From Enterobacteria phage vB_EcoS_IME18: DNA of 50,354 nt. Position 1 is the first letter of the stretch; the number at the start of each line of letters is the position of its first letter. Below, piece after piece: positions 3,905 to 24,265 of this stretch. A model generated the notes under the pieces. That model did not search any database. It saw only the letters and a program-made list of their open reading frames with translations, and was not told the DNA's origin. A program made the position numbers and the translations under genes. Location: the sequence record MH051911; one strand, given 5' to 3'.

Positions 3905-5473
3905 TTACCGCTTAACCATCCCGGCGAGTCGCTTCATTCTCTCGATAGGATCATCAATGGTCAGCAATTCGATGTTCGCCGCATCCATGAAGTTATCGAC
4001 GATATCATCATGCGGGTGGGTGTCATCGTAAGTAAAGGCGCTGTGCTCAGCGATAATTTCAGCAAGCATAGGGTGCTCTTCTGGCAGAACCACACGCCCT
4101 GCTTTAATAACTGGCTGAGCATCCATAGCTCGGGTAACTTTGTCTTTGTTACGCTGCAATGGAGTGATGGATATCGGAGTCTTTTTCCTTAGGTTCTGGA
4201 TTAAGCCCGTACCGCTTGCTTTGTCTTCCACGTAGATTTTACGAAGCACGCCCATTGATTTATTGTGTCTCCATGCCTGATTCACGAAGGCGGTAAATTG
4301 TTTCTCCATATCCGGCGCTTCCCACTTACCGCGAATGCCGTCGATAAAGTAAACCTTGTCGTTTTTCTTACCCCACAAACAAAAGACTGTGTAGTCGTTT
4401 AGCTCACCTGTCTTCTGAGCGGTATCAGCGGTGATAAAACGGTAATCATATTTACCAGGATCTGGCTCGTCAGCGTCAAGGCTGCTTCCGTAATAAGTCC
4501 ACCACTCCGAGTTAAACACGGAGCCACCAAGCGCGATCGGCTTCTGTTGATACTGAGAATCAAAGGTGTACTGGTCCGCTTCGCGCAAAGCTAATAGGTC
4601 GTGCACACTTTCCTTGCTGGGCCAGAATGAATAATGCTTAACACCATCCAATTCTACATACTCAGACGACAAAACGTCGCGCTCGAAGTAAGGCTGCAAC
4701 CAGTCAGGAAGCGTCTTTCCGTATTCTTCCGTCACCAGCGCCGGGATTGAGATCTGGTCAAACTCAATACCCATCCCGCCATTCATCATGAACCATGTTG
4801 AATCCTGAGCGTGCAGTCTTTGCTGAATTGCAATAATAGGAGTCTCGTTATGCATACGACGAGATCGGATGGTGTTTTTCAATAGCATGTGCGTACGCTC
4901 ACGCTTAACCTTTGAGAACATATCATCAGGCTTGTCGATATCATCGAGCATTACCATCCCTGAGAATCCCGGCATCATGTATCCACCACGCGAACCTGTA
5001 ATTCGACCTCCAGCCGCAGCTGATATCAACTCAAACCAAACCTTTCCGTCTTCGTTAAGAACCTGCATCTCCTCGTCTTTCGATGTACCGAACTTGCAAG
5101 GCCATAGCTCTTGAAATTCGTTGCTGCTGATAATCTCACGGACGCGCTTACTGTTACGCTTAACCAAGCTGTCAGCAAACGACACGTTAAGGTTTCGCAC
5201 CTTCTTACACTTGAGCATTGCGTACACCGGAAGGTGAATTGAGAACACTTCAGTTTTACCGGAACCTGGCGTGACGTTAAAGATTGTATTCCCTCGCCGC
5301 CCTGCAATAATTTCCTCCACTTCGTGACATAGGTAAAGGTGATGCCAGTTAGGCTGGAACTGCTGCGCCTGCATAAGCTGGAACCAGATCCGAATCATTT
5401 TTTCGAAATTGGCCTCGCTCATTTTCTTGATCGCCAGCTTCTGTGTTGCGTTAAGGTCTTCCCATTGAATCAT
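3905..5473 (-). CDS. terminase large subunit
   Basis: 522 aa; P-loop-like TPGSGKT near N-terminus; SD AGGAGAA; gene order small terminase-large terminase-portal. Confidence 0.85.
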   Translation of the reverse strand: MIQWEDLNATQKLAIKKMSEANFEKMIRIWFQLMQAQQFQPNWHHLYLCHEVEEIIAGRRGNTIFNVTPGSGKTEVFSIHLPVYAMLKCKKVRNLNVSFADSLVKRNSKRVREIISSNEFQELWPCKFGTSKDEEMQVLNEDGKVWFELISAAAGGRITGSRGGYMMPGFSGMVMLDDIDKPDDMFSKVKRERTHMLLKNTIRSRRMHNETPIIAIQQRLHAQDSTWFMMNGGMGIEFDQISIPALVTEEYGKTLPDWLQPYFERDVLSSEYVELDGVKHYSFWPSKESVHDLLALREADQYTFDSQYQQKPIALGGSVFNSEWWTYYGSSLDADEPDPGKYDYRFITADTAQKTGELNDYTVFCLWGKKNDKVYFIDGIRGKWEAPDMEKQFTAFVNQAWRHNKSMGVLRKIYVEDKASGTGLIQNLRKKTPISITPLQRNKDKVTRAMDAQPVIKAGRVVLPEEHPMLAEIIAEHSAFTYDDTHPHDDIVDNFMDAANIELLTIDDPIERMKRLAGMVKR

Positions 5474-6841: not shown

Positions 6842-7045
6842 TCAATCATTAATTTCGAATTGCCCCTTAGTCATATCCTGCGGGTAATCAATTTCATGAA
6901 GGTTTCCATCGTCACCGTACACATATACGAGTCTATTTGCTTTACTTACCTTTTCAACATCGTACAAGCACCCCGCTGAGAAAGCATCGCTATTGCGTGA
7001 CGTGAAGCATCGAACCTGATCGCCTTTCTTCGGTAAATTAGCCAT
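6842..7045 (-). CDS. hypothetical protein
   Basis: 67-aa ORF in co-directional tightly packed block. Confidence 0.45.
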   Translation of the reverse strand: MANLPKKGDQVRCFTSRNSDAFSAGCLYDVEKVSKANRLVYVYGDDGNLHEIDYPQDMTKGQFEIND

Positions 7046-9777: not shown

Positions 9778-9996
9778 TTAGCAATTCGTGCTATTCGTTT
9801 TAATAGTAATGCAAAAATAATTTTTTAAGCACGTCACCACGCGCGCTGAATCGACTTGTGGGAGCCTTAAAACCTCGCTGACCAATTGCACTGCCGACAC
9901 CTCAGATTTGTAGTAGTGGGCGATTCTGGAGCTATTTGGGCGCATTCCTTCCACTGCGTCGCGTGCTGCATCTTCTGCTGTCATGATAGTAGCCAT
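9778..9996 (-). CDS. questionable ORF, hypothetical
   Basis: 72-aa ORF whose 3' end reads through the palindromic box; weak SD; may be non-coding. Confidence 0.25.
   Translation of the reverse strand: MATIMTAEDAARDAVEGMRPNSSRIAHYYKSEVSAVQLVSEVLRLPQVDSARVVTCLKNYFCITIKTNSTNC
9779..9793 (-). promoter_or_regulatory. palindromic box TAGCA-N5-TGCTA (promoter-associated)
   Basis: TAGCAATTCGTGCTA; TATGAT 22 nt downstream on minus strand. Confidence 0.55.
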
Positions 9997-10103
9997 AAAA
10001 CACCCTTAAGAGATAATGTCAGGATCAGGAGGCAAAATAGCAACTCCTGAAATGATGGCGGCTCGTTATTCCAGTTAGAAAAGTCTGGCATAGTTCTTTC
10101 TCC

Positions 10104-10137
10104 AAAAGAAAGGGGAACCGCTCAGAGCCGATTCCCC
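10104..10137 (-). terminator. intrinsic terminator
   Basis: Stem GGGGAA/TTCCCC with A-rich run upstream on plus (U-rich on minus transcript); downstream of gene 10145..10783. Confidence 0.45.
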
Positions 10138-10144
10138 GTTAAAA

Positions 10145-10783
10145 TTACATGATGAACATCAGCGAAATCGAAGCTACCAGGAGAACAAGCGCAACAGCCA
10201 GGCCGGATAAATCCGCTTTCTCTTCAAACTTCAATGCTGGCTTGCGGTCAACTTGTGACGCCTTGACGCTGTGGATCTTGTTTGCTGCAACCTTGCCTTT
10301 AACGCAGAAAGTGCGCTTACGCTTCTTGCCGAACGTTGCAAACTTAGTGCCGCCGCTATTCCATCTCAGACCTTCGCCATTGTGCGTTACGGTAGCAATG
10401 CGGTGACGCCCCGTGTCGTCAGTAAGCGCTACAGTGTGTTTTGCGTTCTCGGTCGGCGCTTCGTAAATATTGCCAACAGTAAATTTTTTGGTGTTATCGC
10501 TGATACATTCGAATTTCATAAATTTTACCTCTTTATTATGCAGTTGGTTGATTGCTTCGATTACGTCGTTAAATTTAACACCATCCACGATTCGATGGAA
10601 GATGTATTTTGAACTATTGCCATACGGCAGGAATATCTCCTGGTATTCGTGACGACGGACAATGTTCACGTTGCAACCGTTCTCATCAGTAATGATGAAG
10701 CTGTCATCATTTACGCGAACACCTTTGTAAGTTTTTCCCCACTTAAAACCAGATCCGCTACTTGATACGCACTCAAATTTCAT
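10145..10783 (-). CDS. membrane-anchored protein with tandemly duplicated domain
   Basis: Two internal repeats each starting MKFEC(V/I)S...; C-terminal hydrophobic segment LSGLAVALVLLVASISLMFIM. Confidence 0.5.
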   Translation of the reverse strand: MKFECVSSSGSGFKWGKTYKGVRVNDDSFIITDENGCNVNIVRRHEYQEIFLPYGNSSKYIFHRIVDGVKFNDVIEAINQLHNKEVKFMKFECISDNTKKFTVGNIYEAPTENAKHTVALTDDTGRHRIATVTHNGEGLRWNSGGTKFATFGKKRKRTFCVKGKVAANKIHSVKASQVDRKPALKFEEKADLSGLAVALVLLVASISLMFIM

Positions 10784-11067
10784 GGTCTAACCTTCCTGTA
10801 AGGCTTGATTGATAACATCACGTATTGCGTGAAGTCGCATCCTTGATCGTCATACCCGCGATTGATGTATGGCGTCACGTCTGTAACATCGGACACCCTG
10901 GCGTGAACTTCCCACCCGGTAAACTCGTCACGTTCGAACTCGCGTAGCTCAAGGATATCACCAACCTGGAAGTTTCGGTCATTGACGCGGAACTCTGCCG
11001 TTTTGGTTCCGTTCATTACACCAATGAAATGTACCGGGGCGATTTTTAACTTATGAGTTTTGCTCAT
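10780..11067 (-). CDS. hypothetical protein (possible ASCH/DUF3850-like fold)
   Basis: 95-aa ORF, SD GAGGTAAAG; family assignment is tentative recollection. Confidence 0.45.
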   Translation of the reverse strand: MSKTHKLKIAPVHFIGVMNGTKTAEFRVNDRNFQVGDILELREFERDEFTGWEVHARVSDVTDVTPYINRGYDDQGCDFTQYVMLSIKPYRKVRP

Positions 11068-11257
11068 CTTTCTTTACCTCAAATGTCACGTTCCAGAATT
11101 TATTGCCGCATGAATGATAGATTACGTCCTGAGATGTTAGTTCGTGCAATGCGTGCCCGATAATCTCCATTCGGTCATTCGGCGCCAGTCCACGAAGTGA
11201 TTCGCGTAGGCGTGATGCCTTGTCGTAAATCTGCCACTGCGTGAGTCGTGTATCCAT
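11051..11257 (-). CDS. hypothetical protein
   Basis: Start reassigned to ATG 11255-11257 with SD AGAGGA in conserved CCAATCAGAGGA context. Confidence 0.45.
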   Translation of the reverse strand: MDTRLTQWQIYDKASRLRESLRGLAPNDRMEIIGHALHELTSQDVIYHSCGNKFWNVTFEVKKDEQNS

Positions 11258-11325
11258 AGCTGATTCCTCTGATTGGTTGCTCTGCTTCAATAAGGCCACT
11301 ATATCAAATGGCCTTGCGGAAGGTT

Positions 11326-12051: not shown

Positions 12052-12067
12052 TAACAATTCGTTCTTA
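12052..12067 (-). promoter_or_regulatory. degenerate palindromic box with consensus -10
   Basis: TAACAATTCGTTCTTA; on minus strand TATAAT exactly 22 nt downstream. Confidence 0.5.
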
Positions 12068-12553
12068 GTAAACTAACTCACACTCAATATCGAACGGCTC
12101 TGGATCTCGATGGAAGAAGCAAAGTGCCTCTTTATTCATACCTCCCACAAATCCAACAGCATGAAGCTGTTCACCGTTGATATAAGCTAAGTGCGCGGTG
12201 ATTTCTTCAAAGTCAACGATAACCGGGAACGTGCGATTCTCATAACCTTGACGCATCGGGTAGCCGCCATTACTGAGAAGACGAACCTTGCGAGGCTTGA
12301 TGTTTGCCTGCACTTCCCAATCAAAAAAGAACATCGTTCCGTCCTTCTCGTTGAAGTCTGCCGGGCCGAATACAGGGCTAACAGAAAGTCCGTAGTCAAG
12401 ATCGTACACGCCAGCTTTAACAAGATCGTCAACCTTAACGCGGTAGCCTCCAGTGCTGGAATCGCACTTAACCGCATCAACCACGATATGGTCGGCTTCA
12501 AGGTCGCGGGTGAATCCCTTGTAACCACCAGTGCAAAGTAATTTGATTTTCAT
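12065..12553 (-). CDS. hypothetical protein (MKIKLLCTGG family paralog)
   Basis: 162-aa ORF, SD GAGGA; N-terminus resembles 10145 and 18760 products. Confidence 0.55.
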   Translation of the reverse strand: MKIKLLCTGGYKGFTRDLEADHIVVDAVKCDSSTGGYRVKVDDLVKAGVYDLDYGLSVSPVFGPADFNEKDGTMFFFDWEVQANIKPRKVRLLSNGGYPMRQGYENRTFPVIVDFEEITAHLAYINGEQLHAVGFVGGMNKEALCFFHRDPEPFDIECELVY

Positions 12554-12612: not shown

Positions 12613-12627
12613 TAACAAAAAGTGCTA
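12613..12627 (-). promoter_or_regulatory. palindromic box (promoter-associated)
   Basis: TAACAAAAAGTGCTA; TATAGT 22 nt downstream on minus strand. Confidence 0.6.
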
Positions 12628-12816
12628 TTCTTTAATTTCGAAGCAATCGGTGTCTTCGTCGAATATCCAGGGGTCGCCGTTATCATCAAGTAATGAGATA
12701 TTCCCGAAGCTGGTTAGCGATGCACTATAAGGCTTGTCAACGGTAAAGCACTCTTTAACTTCCTCGTAATCACTGCCTTTGAATACTGCAATCATTTGGT
12801 GCATAAAATCAGCCAT
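12625..12816 (-). CDS. hypothetical protein
   Basis: 63-aa ORF. Confidence 0.4.
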   Translation of the reverse strand: MADFMHQMIAVFKGSDYEEVKECFTVDKPYSASLTSFGNISLLDDNGDPWIFDEDTDCFEIKE

Positions 12817-12999: not shown

Positions 13000-13106
13000 T
13001 CGAACGCTCCCGCACACAGTAGTAACATGATTACGATCCCAACAATGGCATGACCCATGCAGAAGAACCAGACGGCAGACCATAGAGCTATTGTATTGAA
13101 GTTCAT
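12996..13106 (-). CDS. small hydrophobic peptide (36 aa), hypothetical
   Basis: ATG overlaps upstream stop (ATGA) and its stop overlaps lipoprotein start; predicted membrane peptide; not in ORF track. Confidence 0.3.
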   Translation of the reverse strand: MNFNTIALWSAVWFFCMGHAIVGIVIMLLLCAGAFE

Positions 13107-13330
13107 TTTAGTACCTCGATCTTGTTGTCGCCGATTGAGTTTTCTACTACCGATTGCGGGTCGTCTCCAGGGACGCGCATGTAGAAATTACTCACTGCTG
13201 TGAAGTTCCATTGACCTCGCCACTTGAAATATAATCCGTGTTTTGCGCCCTTCGCGTAATGAGTGGATTTAGCAGGGATCATGTGCCCGTTGACTCGGGT
13301 CAGTTTGGTTAGGTTACTGTAACGTGGCAT
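13103..13330 (-). CDS. hypothetical protein
   Basis: 75-aa ORF with SD GAGGA. Confidence 0.5.
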   Translation of the reverse strand: MPRYSNLTKLTRVNGHMIPAKSTHYAKGAKHGLYFKWRGQWNFTAVSNFYMRVPGDDPQSVVENSIGDNKIEVLK

Positions 13331-14406: not shown

Positions 14407-14421
14407 TAACAAAAAGTGCTA
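14407..14421 (-). promoter_or_regulatory. palindromic box (promoter-associated)
   Basis: TAACAAAAAGTGCTA; TATTAT 22 nt downstream on minus strand. Confidence 0.55.
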
Positions 14422-14691: not shown

Positions 14692-15207
14692 TTACAATCC
14701 ACATTTCTCAATATGCGCTTTCATCTGGCGCACGATCTCATTTACATCACGAACCATTAACTCGCTATCGCCCAGCTTGCTAACATCAACGTCAAACGAA
14801 TCGAGGCAATCAGTCAGGCTAACTTTCTTCCGGCTGCGGCGCTTCTTCACCGGAACCTCTTCGTCTGTAACGATAACGGTTATCATCGTGATTGCCGCGT
14901 CATTCCGGCCTACCTTCACCTTTGCCACCTTGCCATACTTACAGAAGTGCCTGGTAATGATCGGAGTGATGAAAGCGGACTTGAATCGCTTCTCTACCTC
15001 CCCCTGGTTCTGGTCCACCCATCCGGCAGCGGCAGATTCAAGATCGCTATCGCTTACCTCCTGGTCACGGAAGTAGAATCGCGCGGCTTCGAGGGCCATA
15101 TCATCAGCCACGAAAGAGAACTCATTCATGCCTTTGTCGCGATACATTGCATCGCAGGTTAGTCGAATCATATCGGTGATTTTTAATTCCTGATTGGTGT
15201 TGCTCAT
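14692..15207 (-). CDS. hypothetical protein
   Basis: 171-aa ORF, SD AGAGGG; first gene of minus-strand early block. Confidence 0.55.
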   Translation of the reverse strand: MSNTNQELKITDMIRLTCDAMYRDKGMNEFSFVADDMALEAARFYFRDQEVSDSDLESAAAGWVDQNQGEVEKRFKSAFITPIITRHFCKYGKVAKVKVGRNDAAITMITVIVTDEEVPVKKRRSRKKVSLTDCLDSFDVDVSKLGDSELMVRDVNEIVRQMKAHIEKCGL

Positions 15208-15611
15208 AATATACCCTCTTTGTCTATTCGTGTGTAAATGGTGTCATAATGTGTCAACAATTGCCATTGTGACATTGCGATGTAGAGCTGTCAATGCCTG
15301 CGAGCCAATTTTAAGCCGTGTAACATTTGTCTAGCTGTCTAGAGTCACTATAGAAATATATAGCTCTCAAAAAAGTACTGTATATATAAACATGCAGATA
15401 GAAATATGCCAACAGTACGCCAGACAATGTAAGACAACTATACACAACTATTACAATATAATTATCTATATATATAAATAAAAAAAACACTATATATATT
15501 ATATAGATACATATATCTATATGTATATTTAGAGGCGTCACAGTGTGTAATTTTGTCACAAGTGCGATTCTAGACAAATATTACATCCGTGACAAGTTAA
15601 AGTGTAATCGA

Positions 15612-15626
15612 TAGCACTTTTTGCTA
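15612..15626 (+). promoter_or_regulatory. palindromic box TAGCA-N5-TGCTA
   Basis: TAGCACTTTTTGCTA inside control region; no good -10 at +22. Confidence 0.4.
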
Positions 15627-15816
15627 AAAATGGAGATGACTACCAGGCGAACTGGGCAACACCAGATCATCCCTCTCACAATCATTGCAATCTCAGCAAC
15701 AAATCAACCAACTGTTGCACACCATGCAATAATCACGTTTCATCATTTGCAATCAATCGCAATCAGAATTATTCCACCTATTCCGATATTGATGGAATAA
15801 TGAGCAATTATTGGAA

Positions 15817-15831
15817 TAGCATTTTTTGCTA
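15817..15831 (+). promoter_or_regulatory. palindromic box (promoter-associated)
   Basis: TAGCATTTTTTGCTA with TATGGT-like hexamer about 22-23 nt downstream; upstream of 15895 gene. Confidence 0.45.
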
Positions 15832-15894
15832 ATGACTCGATCAGGTTGTCGGGGTATGGTTCTGGCCATCAACCAATCAGAAGAGGAAGCAGCA

Positions 15895-16512
15895 ATGAAG
15901 TTAATTTGGTCACTATTCGACGGTTCCGGTCTTGCGGGTCATGAACTGGCAAAGCAAGGTCACAAGGTGATGTGCTTCAACTTTGACGGAGCAGATCACG
16001 GAGATTACGCAAAGTACAATGCCCGGGTTGAGCATCCGAACATTGAGTATGTGAACGTGTTCATTGATGCAACGTTTGAGCGTGATGCGATCGCGGGTGT
16101 GTATGGCAAGCCGGATTTTATTATGGCCTTCCCTCCTTGCACTGACCTGGCTGTTAGTGGTGCTCGTCACTTTGCAAGCAAGCGTGAGCGCGATCCGTTA
16201 TTCCAGGAGAAAGCTGTTGCCACCGCTAGGATTGCTGCGAATATTGGCGACGCCCTGGGAGTGACTTACATCATTGAGAATCCGGTGAGCGTCCTGTCAT
16301 CTGCCTGGAGAAAACCAGATCACTCCTTCAATCCCTGGGAGTATGGCGGCTACCTTCCTGAGAATGACGCACATCCCTGGTTCCCGATGTATATTGCGCC
16401 GCGCGATGCTTACCCGAAGAAAACTTGTCTTTGGACCTCTGACGATTTTGTCATGCCAGAGAAAAAACCTGTAACCTGCCTGACGGGTACTCTGCACAGC
16501 ACAGCAAGCTAG
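15895..16512 (+). CDS. short C5-cytosine methyltransferase-like protein
   Basis: Start reassigned to ATG 15895 (SD AGAGGAAG); motif I-like LFDGSGLAG, PC motif FPPCTD, ENV-like IIENPVSV; only about 205 aa, no obvious target-recognition domain. Confidence 0.5.
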   Translation: MKLIWSLFDGSGLAGHELAKQGHKVMCFNFDGADHGDYAKYNARVEHPNIEYVNVFIDATFERDAIAGVYGKPDFIMAFPPCTDLAVSGARHFASKRERDPLFQEKAVATARIAANIGDALGVTYIIENPVSVLSSAWRKPDHSFNPWEYGGYLPENDAHPWFPMYIAPRDAYPKKTCLWTSDDFVMPEKKPVTCLTGTLHSTAS

Positions 16513-16859: not shown

Positions 16860-17045
16860 ATGAAAACGAAATTAGTGCATAAATCAGAAATCAAGATCGG
16901 CGATACTGTTATTCACAACGGAGAGCTTAGAACAGTTGGTAAGGAGTCGATAACCAAAGATGAATTTATGGGGTTATTGTTGTTCGGCGACTCCTATCGC
17001 CTGGGGTACAAATTTGTCGAGCTTGTTGAAGATGTAAAATTCTAA
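16860..17045 (+). CDS. hypothetical protein
   Basis: 61-aa ORF; stop followed directly by box. Confidence 0.4.
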   Translation: MKTKLVHKSEIKIGDTVIHNGELRTVGKESITKDEFMGLLLFGDSYRLGYKFVELVEDVKF

Positions 17046-18759: not shown

Positions 18760-19176
18760 ATGAAATCCATCAAACTTAAATGTACTTCAGCAGATAAAAT
18801 CACAGGATTTGAAGTAAACAACCTGTACAAAGGTCGTGAGCGCTATGATGGCACTCGCGAAGTAAAATTAAAATGCGGAAAGTATTTAAAACTTGAAAAG
18901 CATGATGAATTACAGATTCACGGATCTGATGAAATCTTCTTCGCGAAGTTCACTGAGTTGAAAACAAAGACGCTCAAGTGCACCGGGCTTGACCATCGCA
19001 ATCCGATGAAAAAATCATTCAAACTTGGCAAACGTTACCAGGTGGAAAGCGGTCGCGCTCTCGGCGGCGTAGCTGGTTATATTTTTGATGAGGACGGTTG
19101 CCGCTGGACCTTATTTCGAGAAGATGTTGGTTTTAGTATCGCGGACGGCACAACCTTTGAGGCCAAATACTTATAA
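18760..19176 (+). CDS. hypothetical protein (MKxxKLKCT family paralog)
   Basis: 138-aa ORF; N-terminus resembles 10145 and 12065 products. Confidence 0.5.
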   Translation: MKSIKLKCTSADKITGFEVNNLYKGRERYDGTREVKLKCGKYLKLEKHDELQIHGSDEIFFAKFTELKTKTLKCTGLDHRNPMKKSFKLGKRYQVESGRALGGVAGYIFDEDGCRWTLFREDVGFSIADGTTFEAKYL

Positions 19177-21643: not shown

Positions 21644-21667
21644 AGGAGGCTTACGCCTCCTTTTTTT
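21644..21667. terminator. bidirectional intrinsic terminator between convergent genes
   Basis: Stem AGGAGGC/GCCTCCT, loop TTAC, T7 run on plus and U-rich on minus; overlaps last codons of spanin gene. Confidence 0.7.
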
Positions 21668-22055
21668 CGTACTTACGAATTGAAAAATAAACCATCAACA
21701 GGCCAATAAAAACGAGAGTCCACCCTACAATTGCATCGTACCAGTTCCCATGTTTTGTTACCGTGATGTTTTCAGCGTTAACCGTATTTGCCTGAATGGT
21801 TGACACCTCCACAGACTTATTGACGGATGAGTCAACCTTGCCAATATTTGAGTCACTCACCTTCACCTCTCGCTTATCCTCTGCCTTTGCTGTAACTCCT
21901 GCTAGTTGTTTCGTGTTCTCAGCGCCAACCTGCGCCGTAACATCCGGGGAGTCAGAAAGTAAACCGCTCAGAGCAGATGCCGTCGAGCAACCGGATAGAG
22001 AAATAACACCAACAGCCACTGTAATCGCAATGCACGTTTTCTTCAGTTTCATCAT
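21651..22055 (-). CDS. unimolecular spanin (lipoprotein signal plus C-terminal TM)
   Basis: N-terminal [23 protein letters not shown] lipobox and C-terminal hydrophobic [13 protein letters not shown]; last gene of lysis cassette. Confidence 0.6.
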
Positions 22056-22540
22056 AATTCCTTAACGCAATACGCGTATTCTTCAGTGCGTCGGTTCTTG
22101 AGTCCTCTAGACACTTCTCGCTTTTTGGTTTTTGGGTTGTAGTAGTATACCCATCGCCATAACTGATTGCACGCTTCCTTGTGCTTACTCTGATTTATTA
22201 GCTTAAGCATTGTAGAAGATCCGAACGCGCCAGTTCCAACGTTGAAAGTGAAGCTGTACAGTGACGCGCGCATCGTTACCGGAATATCAACATTCACCTT
22301 TTTGTCAACGTATCGCTGAGCGACGCCGATATGTTTTATCAGCAATGCATCGCATTCTCGCTTAGTGTATTTCTTACCAGGTATGACGTCCGGCCCGGTT
22401 ATTCCGCTGCATACGGTAGGGACTCCGGCTATATCGTAATACACCTCGTACTCTATACCTTCGATTCGTTCAAGTAGGGTAGGTGTCAACGTCAAAGCAG
22501 CCCCGATCGATGCGCCTATAACGTTATTTTTTAAGCTCAT
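22052..22540 (-). CDS. SAR endolysin (GH24 lysozyme)
   Basis: Lysozyme motif [17 protein letters not shown]...G; weakly hydrophobic Gly/Ala-rich N-terminal segment; ATGA overlap with holin. Confidence 0.75.
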
Positions 22541-22755
22541 TATCTCCCCCTGATCTTAAGCGCCTTATTTAGATCGCCATCGTTTAACGCTTCCTGAATT
22601 GCCTTACTATCACGATACTTCCAGTATGCACCCCAGGCACCAAAAAGCAGAAAGCAAATGAATGTAGCGCCAGCAATATAAAGTTGCCCGGTAGCGGCCC
22701 CGACTAATGAAGCACCGCCCGTGCTTGACGTAGCTGCTGTTAAAAATTCTTTCAT
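22540..22755 (-). CDS. holin (pinholin-like)
   Basis: Start chosen at ATG 22753-22755 (SD GGTGAG); two hydrophobic segments; immediately upstream of endolysin. Confidence 0.55.
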
Positions 22756-22873
22756 AATCTCACCATATATTTTTTGAACAAGTGAGTCGATTTTAACCTT
22801 CAAATTTACTTGATACAACGCAAAAAGGCCAGCATGTAAATCATGCCAGCCTGTAAGGTGATGAATGATATTG

Positions 22874-23050
22874 TTAATCTATCGCAATAAATTCCAGATA
22901 GCTACCGTTCAGAGGAGTCTGAATTGCTGAACCTCGCCCGTCGTAAATCTCAAATAATCCCCCACCGAAATCATAACCAACACTATAGATCTGATTTACG
23001 CGGAATGGAAGTGTTTTGGAGTCATTTCGGATGCACTTAACTCGCTTCAT
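22874..23050 (-). CDS. hypothetical small protein (58 aa)
   Basis: ATG 23048-23050 with SD AAGAGGA; not in ORF track. Confidence 0.4.
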   Translation of the reverse strand: MKRVKCIRNDSKTLPFRVNQIYSVGYDFGGGLFEIYDGRGSAIQTPLNGSYLEFIAID

Positions 23051-23107: not shown

Positions 23108-23122
23108 TATCAATTAGTGCGA
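23108..23122 (-). promoter_or_regulatory. degenerate palindromic box (promoter-associated)
   Basis: TATCAATTAGTGCGA; TATAGT 22 nt downstream on minus strand. Confidence 0.45.
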
Positions 23123-24265
23123 CCCTGTCATTTCTGGACGATAGATGAATCGACCGATTTCACCAAACTGCTTATCGTAAACAATTACCGCCGCCTGGCG
23201 ATATGAGCGCCACCCTCCGCGTGCTGCGTATGCATCTTTCGCGCCTAACTGACCGTGTACTTCATCAATACCTAGCGAGTGCTCAGTGATTGTCTGGTGA
23301 TGCCAGTGCCCGCTATGAGTATACACATACTTGCTCTCGCCGAAATCCGATCGGAAATCTGCTGCCATCGCTGCAAGTCGCGTGTCTGCCTTTTTCATAG
23401 TGTGCCCGTGAGTGTATCCCAACAAGGTATTTCCCCAACGAGTCTTATGCAGAATCATAGGACTGACGTCAACGAATACTCGCGGCTCGTCTTCATAGTA
23501 TGCTGCCATTGCTGCGCGTAACCAAATCATCCCGGCCTGGTCGTGGTTTCCTTCGATAACCTGAACTTCGACCTCTTTGTGTTTCGTCAGCATTTTGTCT
23601 ATAGCTCGTCGCACCGATCGAATCGCTACATGCACCAATTTAGCATATCGTGAATCCTGATCAAGAACGTGACCACTTGCCGGGGTAACTGCATCAAGTC
23701 CGTCAGAGTGAAGGAAGTCGCCGCCGATTAACAGAACAGCCTTCTCTGCGTTCGGGGCAATATCGATCGCGTAGTTAAAGAAGTCATTCAGCACTTTTTC
23801 CGCTACGTCTGTAGAGTAGTTCTCTCCGCATTCATGCTTGTGAGCAAGCGCGCCAATGTGAAGATCGAACACCGGGTATAGTGCCAGCTTGCCAATAGCG
23901 GTTGTAAGCCCTTGCGATGTGAGTAGCTCAGTTAGTTTTGCTCGCGGCAAGTCTTCACAGAATGCAATACGCGCTGCTTCCATCATTGCCGCAATCTTCT
24001 CACGGTCCTGATCGGTCTTAACCCATCGCACTACCTCGGTCCCATCTCCGCGAATCATCGTTGATGTGCCTTTTACCATGAATCCTTCCGGTACGTTCTT
24101 AGCAACATGCTCGTTGCCGTGGAAGTGTCCTTCTTTTGCCAATTTTGCGTGGCGAGCCTCAACAGTGCGAATGTGCATACCGTACTTTTCCGCGATCTCG
24201 CGAAGTGTCAGGCCTTTCATGCGTTCTTCGACAAGTTGCTCGGTAGTGATTTTAGCTTGTGACAT
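23114..24265 (-). CDS. HTH domain-containing calcineurin-like metallophosphoesterase
   Basis: N-terminal HTH-like LTLREIAEKYGMHIRTVEARH; metallophosphatase motifs DLH, GDFLHSD, GNHD, GHT, GHWH. Confidence 0.6.
   Translation of the reverse strand: MSQAKITTEQLVEERMKGLTLREIAEKYGMHIRTVEARHAKLAKEGHFHGNEHVAKNVPEGFMVKGTSTMIRGDGTEVVRWVKTDQDREKIAAMMEAARIAFCEDLPRAKLTELLTSQGLTTAIGKLALYPVFDLHIGALAHKHECGENYSTDVAEKVLNDFFNYAIDIAPNAEKAVLLIGGDFLHSDGLDAVTPASGHVLDQDSRYAKLVHVAIRSVRRAIDKMLTKHKEVEVQVIEGNHDQAGMIWLRAAMAAYYEDEPRVFVDVSPMILHKTRWGNTLLGYTHGHTMKKADTRLAAMAADFRSDFGESKYVYTHSGHWHHQTITEHSLGIDEVHGQLGAKDAYAARGGWRSYRQAAVIVYDKQFGEIGRFIYRPEMTGSH

Follow-up and report, generated by a model that had tools for sequence, protein, structure and literature searches.

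Tandem small β-barrels on a predicted tail anchor: a 212-aa accessory protein of a T1-like coliphage with a probable nested start

The 212-aa open reading frame and its locus

T1-like coliphages are relevant both in the laboratory and for therapy, and nearly all of their small accessory genes are annotated as "hypothetical". One such gene is located at 10145..10783 of Enterobacteria phage vB_EcoS_IME18 (sequence record MH051911), whose whole analysed stretch of 50,354 nucleotides (nt) is referred to here as the window. It is a complete open reading frame (ORF) of 212 amino acids (aa), as a previous sequence-only reading had stated without giving its strand, which is the minus strand. According to an AlphaFold2 (AF2) model, the product is built of two six-stranded β-barrels in tandem, followed by a basic linker and by a hydrophobic helix that reaches the very C-terminus (Table 1). 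The small SH3-clan/DUF7244 domain, to which the barrels appear to be related, was already known in phages; what is new is its arrangement in tandem on a membrane anchor, together with a probable nested internal start. In this manner, one member of an SH3-clan family, to which the genes at 18760..19176, 12625..12816 and 22874..23050 would also belong, receives a concrete anatomy: two barrels on a tail anchor, predicted to face the cytoplasm, with two nested isoforms as the probable products.

The 4 kb surrounding the ORF are ~92% identical to Tunavirus phages (JMPW1, EC22.5-2, SH6 and others, within the Drexlerviridae), which identifies the window as a T1-like coliphage genome. The 212-aa protein matches PHROG 10580 over positions 1-212 of 212 (E 6.7e-132) and has 44 homologs of 58-92% identity, and the ORF is intact and full-length in 56 phage records. 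All its annotated relatives, including those in curated RefSeq records, are labelled "hypothetical protein". The gene has its own Shine-Dalgarno (SD) sequence, its first ATG shares bases with the stop codon of the ASCH-domain gene upstream (ATGA), and it is followed by a strong intrinsic terminator, which in T1 is annotated in the equivalent position, after the T1 ortholog. The ORF is located in a leftward operon of small genes, the end of which is marked by the terminator, and it is presumed to be expressed early.

Table 1. Features of the 212-aa ORF, its signals and the related genes of the window. dN/dS, ratio of nonsynonymous (dN) to synonymous (dS) divergence; pLDDT, predicted local distance difference test (AF2).
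Feature	Coordinates	Strand	dN/dS	Remarks
212-aa ORF (complete, including stop codon)	10145..10783	minus		PHROG 10580
SD sequence AGGAAGG	10791..10797	minus		7 nt 5' of the first ATG (10783..10781); sequence reading and SD scan
Module 1 (aa 1-88)	10520..10783	minus	0.14 (module 1 core; dS ~0.48)	Strands 2-8, 18-23, 28-32, 38-45, 50-53, 60-66; AF2 pLDDT 80-94
Module 2 (aa 89-153)	10325..10519	minus	0.04	Strands 89-96, 106-109, 117-121, 127-133, 138-141, 146-150; AF2 pLDDT 85-94
Basic linker (aa 154-191)	10211..10324	minus	0.31	Predicted disordered, pLDDT <50; 12 K/R against 4 D/E
C-terminal transmembrane helix (aa 192-212), up to the stop codon	10148..10210	minus	0.31	AF2 helix 192-211
Zone of suppressed synonymous change (codons 67-88)	10520..10585	minus		dS 0.064, against ~0.5 elsewhere
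Internal SD sequence AAAGAGGT	10527..10534	minus		7-nt AT-rich spacer, then ATG 10519..10517 (codon 89)
Intrinsic terminator hairpin, then TTTCTTTT	10112..10137	minus		9-bp stem with 6 GC pairs; starts 8 nt past the stop
36-aa membrane-peptide gene (MPDFSNWNNEPPSFQELLFCLLILTLSLKGVLWLLS)	9981..10091	minus		Just past the terminator; homolog of T1 CPTT1_011; below the default length of the ORF list
Probable single-module family member, 63 aa	12625..12816	minus		Pooled module profile 84.5%, P 6.9e-6; directly upstream of 12065..12553
Gp54 ortholog, 64 aa	14152..14346	minus		PF25180, E 1.7e-35; E 1.2e-13 to PDB 9AXB; same leftward operon
Paralog of 138 aa, two tandem modules, no anchor	18760..19176	plus		Remote paralog by hhalign
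Standalone DUF7244 (SH3-clan) gene	22874..23050	minus		PF23896, E 4.6e-28, 97.5 bits

Two barrels from an old tandem duplication

The sequence-only reading had described two tandem copies of a module of about 90 aa, each beginning with MKFEC(V/I)S, and those motifs are found at aa 1-7 (MKFECVS) and at aa 89-95 (MKFECIS). When the protein is compared with itself, its halves turn out to be related well beyond chance: their Smith-Waterman alignment, of 37 residues, has a z of 7.2 and a score reached by 0 of 1000 shuffles, and the family profiles of both modules match each other by hhalign at 94.5% (E 8e-8, 48 columns). The duplication is thereby upheld, and it is the size of the module that needs correction, since the detectable similarity covers 37-48 residues and the six-stranded barrel of the AF2 model sets the repeated unit at ~65 aa instead of ~90. 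In that model, built on a 39-sequence alignment, both modules are confident (pLDDT ~90) and each forms a barrel whose first two strands are separated by a loop of 9 residues, with module 1 carrying an extra helix at aa 71-82. The columns that are invariant in the 39 aligned sequences lie all within module 2, save for K181 in the linker; module 2, present in all distant homologs, is the conserved core of the family.

The two modules are not the product of a recent duplication of the DNA, which is ruled out because only 36 of the 75 nt in their first 25 codons are shared and different synonymous codons specify the MKFEC residues common to both. The duplication is therefore old, and the motif has been held by selection at the protein level. 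Module 1 is absent from T1, from IME347 (Badaguanvirus) and from more distant relatives. T1 ORF 68/CPTT1_010 (AAP49932) is a direct ortholog, 82% identical over barrel 2, linker and anchor, and shares the slot, the SD with its ATG and the terminator, but it is only 124 aa long and lacks barrel 1, in a genome that also lacks the ASCH and the 82-aa genes upstream. Both this protein and that of IME347 (126 aa) consist of module 2, linker and anchor only, starting at the internal MKFECIS/MKFKC. In a more distant T1-like phage (L057), a 104-aa protein with a single module and an anchor occupies the same slot, and the order of genes (ASCH gene, anchored gene, membrane peptide of ~40 aa, 72-aa gene, onward to PNK) is the same as that of the window. 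From the single-module forms in these phages it follows that one module with its anchor is the ancestral state, and that the Tunavirus lineage gained module 1 through a tandem duplication.

As for T1 itself, the comparison of its locus (AY216660, L002 1469..1548) with 10780..11299 of the window reveals that the ASCH gene (10780..11067), the 82-aa gene (11051..11299) and module 1 are missing as one block, and that T1 keeps ~20 nt homologous to module 1 codons 75-81, just 5' of its SD. This relic, together with the missing genes, indicates that the short form of T1 is a secondary deletion. Beyond these phages, the architecture varies between genera, with one, two or four modules and with the anchor present or absent; the viral contigs matched by the distant homologs belonged only to other T1-like phages, whose synteny offered no functional neighbour. 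Some peculiarities of single records can be added. Upstream of the short gene, T1 and IME347 share a conserved leader (CGATAGCACGAATTGCTAAA) and a hairpin. In SH2 (KY985004.1 4695..5498), the orthologous coding sequence (CDS) is annotated with 267 aa, ~168 nt past the usual stop, and could represent the loss of a stop codon that fuses it toward the downstream membrane-peptide gene. In vB_SsoS_008 (MK335533.1, L003 1501..2112), the gene is split into several small CDSs (48.6% identity), by frameshifts or sequencing errors.

The C-terminal anchor and its predicted topology

The hydrophobic C-terminal anchor proposed from the sequence is borne out: the best 19-residue segment (residues 194-212) reaches a Kyte-Doolittle value of 2.66, compared with a maximum of 0.56 elsewhere and -0.61 for the N-terminal 20 aa, so that it is the sole hydrophobic segment of the protein, and AF2 models it as a helix. 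Not a single residue follows it, an arrangement found also in 7 other family members, and the anchor is kept in the relatives of the protein down to the distant single-module forms of 104-145 aa. In most members, the 15 residues ahead of the helix hold 4-6 K/R, which places the N-terminal side inside by the positive-inside rule, and the T1 record carries the note "single transmembrane domain predicted N-in and C-out". One hydrophobic helix, placed at the very C-terminus, and the lack of an N-terminal signal or any further transmembrane segment give the protein the make-up of tail-anchored proteins. From the absence of a signal, the positive charge before the helix and the lack of anything after it, we infer a tail-anchored protein of the inner membrane, the two barrels of which would face the cytoplasm. 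A similar plan exists in the host, where ElaB, YqjD and YgaM of E. coli are C-tail-anchored inner-membrane proteins, related to stress or associated with ribosomes, with helical domains. As predicted for the 212-aa protein, they expose an N-terminal domain to the cytoplasm, end in one transmembrane helix at the very C-terminus and lack a signal peptide, but they have no sequence or fold relationship to it.

The internal start and the pattern of selection

The ATG at codon 89, with which module 2 begins, is the only other start codon of the ORF that is preceded by an SD sequence. This internal SD is conserved in 8 of 8 orthologs, in T1 (as GGAGGT, a ribosome-binding site annotated by the T1 authors) and in IME347, and the orthologs of the latter two phages (124-126 aa) actually start from it and its ATG. 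The region of internal initiation is also predicted to be accessible in the mRNA (P(unpaired) 0.64, 93rd percentile). The codons leading up to it (67-88) form the zone of suppressed synonymous change, where 4 of the 22 codons have a variable third position, compared with 61% elsewhere (scan-statistic permutation P 0.01). The zone may act as an element for the initiation of translation within the gene, serve as an RNA signal of another kind or mark a recombination boundary. A weak hairpin (10598..10581) is located just upstream of this zone. Judging from the sequence, the ORF probably yields two products, of 212 and 124 aa, and a conserved nucleotide zone and an internal SD inside a coding region would illustrate how a tandem duplication can create nested genes in phages.

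The values of dN/dS, obtained by the Nei-Gojobori method from 8 distinct full-length orthologs, bear on another claim of the sequence-only reading, namely that the family is a diversifying one. Within the genus the opposite is the case, with purifying selection along the whole protein (dN/dS 0.04-0.31). Between genera divergence is fast, given that an exhaustive search of 1.84 billion representative proteins with the profile of the 212-aa family returned only 8 matches.

Would both products be functional? It has to be considered that only the 124-aa product is, and that the 212-aa ORF is an in-frame fusion, the result of a tandem duplication with a lost stop, in which barrel 1 is a passenger heading for loss. 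T1, IME347 and all distant relatives have indeed the short form alone, the internal SD is strong, conserved and accessible, and the conservation at nucleotide level lies upstream of the internal start. However, no fewer than 56 phage records preserve barrel 1 whole and in frame, and it shows a dN/dS of 0.14 in spite of a saturating dS of ~0.48, folds confidently in AF2, and has a good SD of its own as well as translational coupling to the upstream gene. An intact barrel under purifying selection, with a confident fold and its own SD, is unlike a decaying passenger, and we regard this possibility as improbable.

Members of the family in the window

Besides the 212-aa protein, the sequence-only reading had assigned to a paralogous family, spread across the early region, the products of 18760..19176 and 12065..12553. 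The search for relatives was calibrated with unrelated ORFs of the window, of which 15 small ones gave P of at least 7e-4 against single-module profiles, and 13 controls gave P of at least 0.06 against the pooled module profile. The product of 18760..19176 (hereafter C, its modules being C1 and C2) proved to be a paralog: the full proteins match by hhalign at 91.7% (E 7.6e-7), colinearly over both modules, a profile made solely of the family of the 212-aa protein matches C1 at 95% (P 4e-8), and the leave-one-out profile without C sequences still recovers C1 at 93% and C2 at 84%. C is also the best non-self ORF for the module hidden Markov model (HMM) among 881 ORFs (E 0.013), and no hydrophobic segment was found in it by Kyte-Doolittle analysis.

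The product of 12065..12553 (minus strand) does possess the N-terminus that had been quoted for it, but its similarity to the modules is absent from every sequence test. Against the modules of the 212-aa protein and C, it gave a Smith-Waterman z of -0.5 in shuffles, 0.0-0.7% by hhalign and pooled-profile P of 0.17 and 0.42, and the module HMM found no match to it when ORFs were scanned, so that its membership of the family is unsupported by sequence; its AF2 model is too poor for use (pLDDT 51). The protein seems to be weakly duplicated within itself, as K(I/V)(K/R)LL..GGY occurs at aa 2-11 and 89-98 (Smith-Waterman z 3.1, hhalign P 0.001), and PHROG 13367 matches it in two stretches.

A multi-copy module family is scattered over the small-gene region, as proposed, with a membership that differs from the one originally listed. 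The gene at 12625..12816 probably encodes another member, judged by profile matches that hold with P of 1e-4 to 4e-4 when either the sequences of the 212-aa protein or those of C are left out of the pool (...CFTVDKPY...ISLLDDNGDPW...). The gene at 6842..7045 (minus strand, 67 aa) is a possible member, with an alike pattern of motifs (VRCFTS...FSAGCLYDV...VYVYGDDGN) and P of 0.001-0.02, which overlap the range of the controls; Pfam has no match for it. The gene at 16860..17045 (plus strand, 61 aa, MKTKLVHKSEIKIGDTVIHNGELRTVGK...) gives P 0.006 against the module 2 profile and 0.2 against the pooled one, and may encode another, unrelated small β-barrel protein. The pattern common to all module copies is K-h-K/E-C-h, a loop, F-x-h-G/N-x-x-Y and h-x-h-D-D/E-x-G.

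Relationship to DUF7244

DUF7244 has been described as a standalone "SH3" protein encoded beside the Drexlerviridae lysis cassette, with a proposed role in cell-wall binding (Eremina et al. 2026, PMC13164509). In the window, the corresponding gene (22874..23050) is located between a DNA-repair exonuclease gene (23114..24265) and the holin/endolysin/spanin genes (21651..22818), and the N-terminus of its product, MKRVKCIRNDSKTLPFRVNQIY, mirrors the modules of the 212-aa protein. Below threshold, Pfam matches to DUF7244 are given by module 2 of the 212-aa protein (E 0.0019), C (E 0.084) and the proteins P0219 (E 0.0029) and P0222 (8.9e-6). The gathering threshold of 27 bits is reached neither by the 212-aa protein (18.6 bits, aa 90-111) nor by C (13.4 bits), and the modules scored in isolation give no match or 13.3 bits. 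In a profile-profile comparison, a pool of modules without any DUF7244 sequence matches the DUF7244 family at 87.8-88.2% (P 3e-6), with 36-38 columns in register. A second, transitive link comes from the eight matches of the exhaustive search: 4 of the 8 are single-module proteins of 104-145 aa, each ending in a C-terminal hydrophobic helix, and another is P0222 (E 1.5e-4 to the profile of the 212-aa family), a four-fold tandem array without anchor that, in addition to DUF7244, matches DUF6501 (1.3e-10). In BFVD there are many phage proteins of 60-80 aa with the fold of the module, one of them a DUF7244 protein.

The module appears to be a divergent DUF7244/SH3-clan domain, distantly related to the DUF7244 family. 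Both have the same small-barrel pattern (K-h-K-C-h ... F-x-h-G/N-x-x-Y ... D-x-x-G); the modules differ in carrying two extra strands past the DUF7244 core, in occurring in tandem and fused to a linker and an anchor, and in being encoded within an operon of small genes and not by the lysis genes. The binding of cell wall that has been proposed for DUF7244 is at odds with the cytoplasmic side of the membrane, where the barrels of the 212-aa protein are predicted to be, and some caution about that role is advisable in view of the predicted topology of these relatives.

Comparison with Gp54

Gp54 of phage Bas11 is a direct trigger of the CapRelSJ46 defence system (Zhang et al. 2024, PMC11578894; PDB 9AXB/9ERV); it is non-essential and interacts with host immunity, and its crystal structure (9AXB) is a six-stranded β-barrel in which a prominent loop joins strands 1 and 2 (PMC11578894), a topology reported as near-orphan. 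Its ortholog in the window stands in the same leftward operon as the 212-aa ORF (the mechanical ORF reaches a TTG at 14412). Could the barrels be very divergent Gp54 homologs, localised by the anchor and acting on, or sensed by, a host defence protein? In the AF2 model, each of the two barrels is six-stranded and its strands 1 and 2 are separated by a long loop, a layout also seen in Gp54, and a motif F-x-x-G, as extended F-x-x-G-x-x-[YI], is placed alike in all modules and in Gp54, where its glycine is G24, the CapRel-escape position, although this was observed by eye and by regular expression and the motif is short. A further match to Gp54, "GL(R/T)WN", was discarded, the predicted strand positions placing it on different strands. 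Against such a descent, the 12-sequence Gp54 alignment assembled from fetched loci gives 0.1-4.6% by hhalign, PF25180 has no match for the 212-aa protein or for C at E <= 1-5, and the pooled module profile gives P 0.04-0.1 with Gp54, within the control range. When the module model was searched with Foldseek against the PDB, 9AXB was not among the top 50 and there was no match at E <= 1e-3; what was compared is, besides, a predicted model, and small barrels converge easily. The homology of the barrels to Gp54, with its immune interface, is accordingly decidedly improbable in our estimation.

Given that the sequence and Foldseek searches lend it no support, Gp54 is taken here as the closest solved fold and not as a demonstrated relative, and the modules would be related to it at the fold level only. 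Gp54 differs from them in being a single soluble domain of 64 aa, with no detectable sequence homology to the modules. The role in host interaction that the sequence-only reading had expected for the 212-aa protein is plausible, and the fold-level match of the models would strengthen it slightly. If that link were true, the modules would be candidates for new defence triggers or anti-defence factors, and would provide an evolutionary context for the near-unique structure of Gp54. One could even conceive a large, so far unrecognised superfamily of SH3-like phage modules comprising Gp54, DUF7244, DUF6501, PHROG 10580 and PHROG 2684, of which each T1-like genome would carry six or more copies, some soluble, some in tandem and some membrane-anchored. 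The anchored tandem form would be a two-isoform effector acting on a membrane-associated immunity or takeover target, and itself a possible trigger of sensors. This is a speculative proposal, and one that is probably wrong as a whole.

Proposed function

The best explanation overall, and one to which we concede an even chance, is that the 212-aa protein is a non-structural accessory protein, a membrane-tethered protein-binding adaptor with two isoforms. Its helix would span the inner membrane and leave both barrels at the cytoplasmic face; the two isoforms would be the one of 212 aa (barrel 1, barrel 2 and anchor) and the one of 124 aa (barrel 2 and anchor), the latter produced from the ancestral SD and ATG at codon 89. 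SH3-like barrels are protein-binding modules, and by analogy with SH3-type domains barrel 2 may bind a host or phage protein and hold it at the membrane, with the result that a host factor would be sequestered or inhibited, a membrane-associated defence blocked or a phage component recruited; barrel 1 might add avidity or a second specificity. Barrel 2 (0.04) is where selection is strongest, while the helix is freer to change (0.31), which suggests that the helix is a generic anchor and that the specific function resides in the barrel. The tandem-SH3 adaptors Grb2 and Nck offer a functional analogy only, since they are eukaryotic, five-stranded binders of proline motifs, and neither homology nor a shared type of ligand is supported.

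Several points weigh against this explanation. Regarding the function, neither Pfam nor NCBIfam has anything above threshold for the 212-aa protein, the family profile has 0 matches at E <= 10 in a sequence search of the PDB, and the literature (by accession or locus tag, on tail-anchored proteins of phages, and on early or anti-defence genes of the Drexlerviridae) does not mention the protein. The predicted topology rests on sequence rules only. The use of the internal start is established only where barrel 1 is absent, and the zone of low dS, derived from 8 closely related orthologs, may reflect a recent recombination or another RNA element. The promoter-like matches behind the presumed early expression are no commoner than chance, and the rest of that argument is gene order. 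A further point, a weak match to a structural family, concerns the non-structural nature of the protein.

This match, found in PHROGs next to families of unknown function, is to PHROG 14592, "virion structural protein" (overall E 2e-7, with no single stretch significant), and in some GenBank records of the 4-kb region a neighbouring gene is annotated as "putative morphogenetic protein". That the 212-aa protein itself is virion-associated or morphogenetic is nonetheless very hard to believe: its gene is located in a small accessory block upstream of PNK, ended by a terminator and apart from the head and tail modules; the protein has a membrane anchor and a variable architecture, half of it being deleted in T1; the gene is absent from most Drexlerviridae (66 phage records, as against 213 for Gp54); and the curated RefSeq records say "hypothetical protein".

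The weight can also be placed on the helix and not on the barrels. As a membrane-active effector, it would perturb the inner membrane in order to exclude superinfecting phages or to tune the timing of lysis, perhaps together with the downstream peptide of ~36 aa, and the barrels would regulate it or make it oligomerise. Many early phage membrane proteins, such as T4 Imm and HK97 gp15, act in exclusion, the anchor is conserved in every family member, and the gene is coupled in position to the membrane-peptide gene in the window, in T1 and in the distant T1-like phage (in the last one, L057, the peptide gene is at 4368..4490). Nevertheless, the transmembrane segment is what evolves fastest (0.31), with barrel 2 near frozen (0.04); no periplasmic residues exist past the helix, which makes a contact with incoming phage components impossible; the terminator stands between the gene and that of the peptide; and the lysis cassette is elsewhere (21651..22818). 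A membrane effector is hence unlikely.

Other features of the early region

An AT-rich stretch (approximately 15200..15830) with no convincing genes divides the leftward operon of small genes from a rightward one, which opens with a DNA methyltransferase-like ORF (15826..16512). Several sequences resembling σ70 promoters are present on its minus strand, one of them being TTGACA-17-CACAAT (15294..15266, with an extended TG), and it is likely the divergent early promoter region. Within the small genes, the early ORF at 13103..13330 (minus strand) belongs over its full length to Pfam DUF7274 (E 1.7e-39), another uncharacterised family of the Drexlerviridae.

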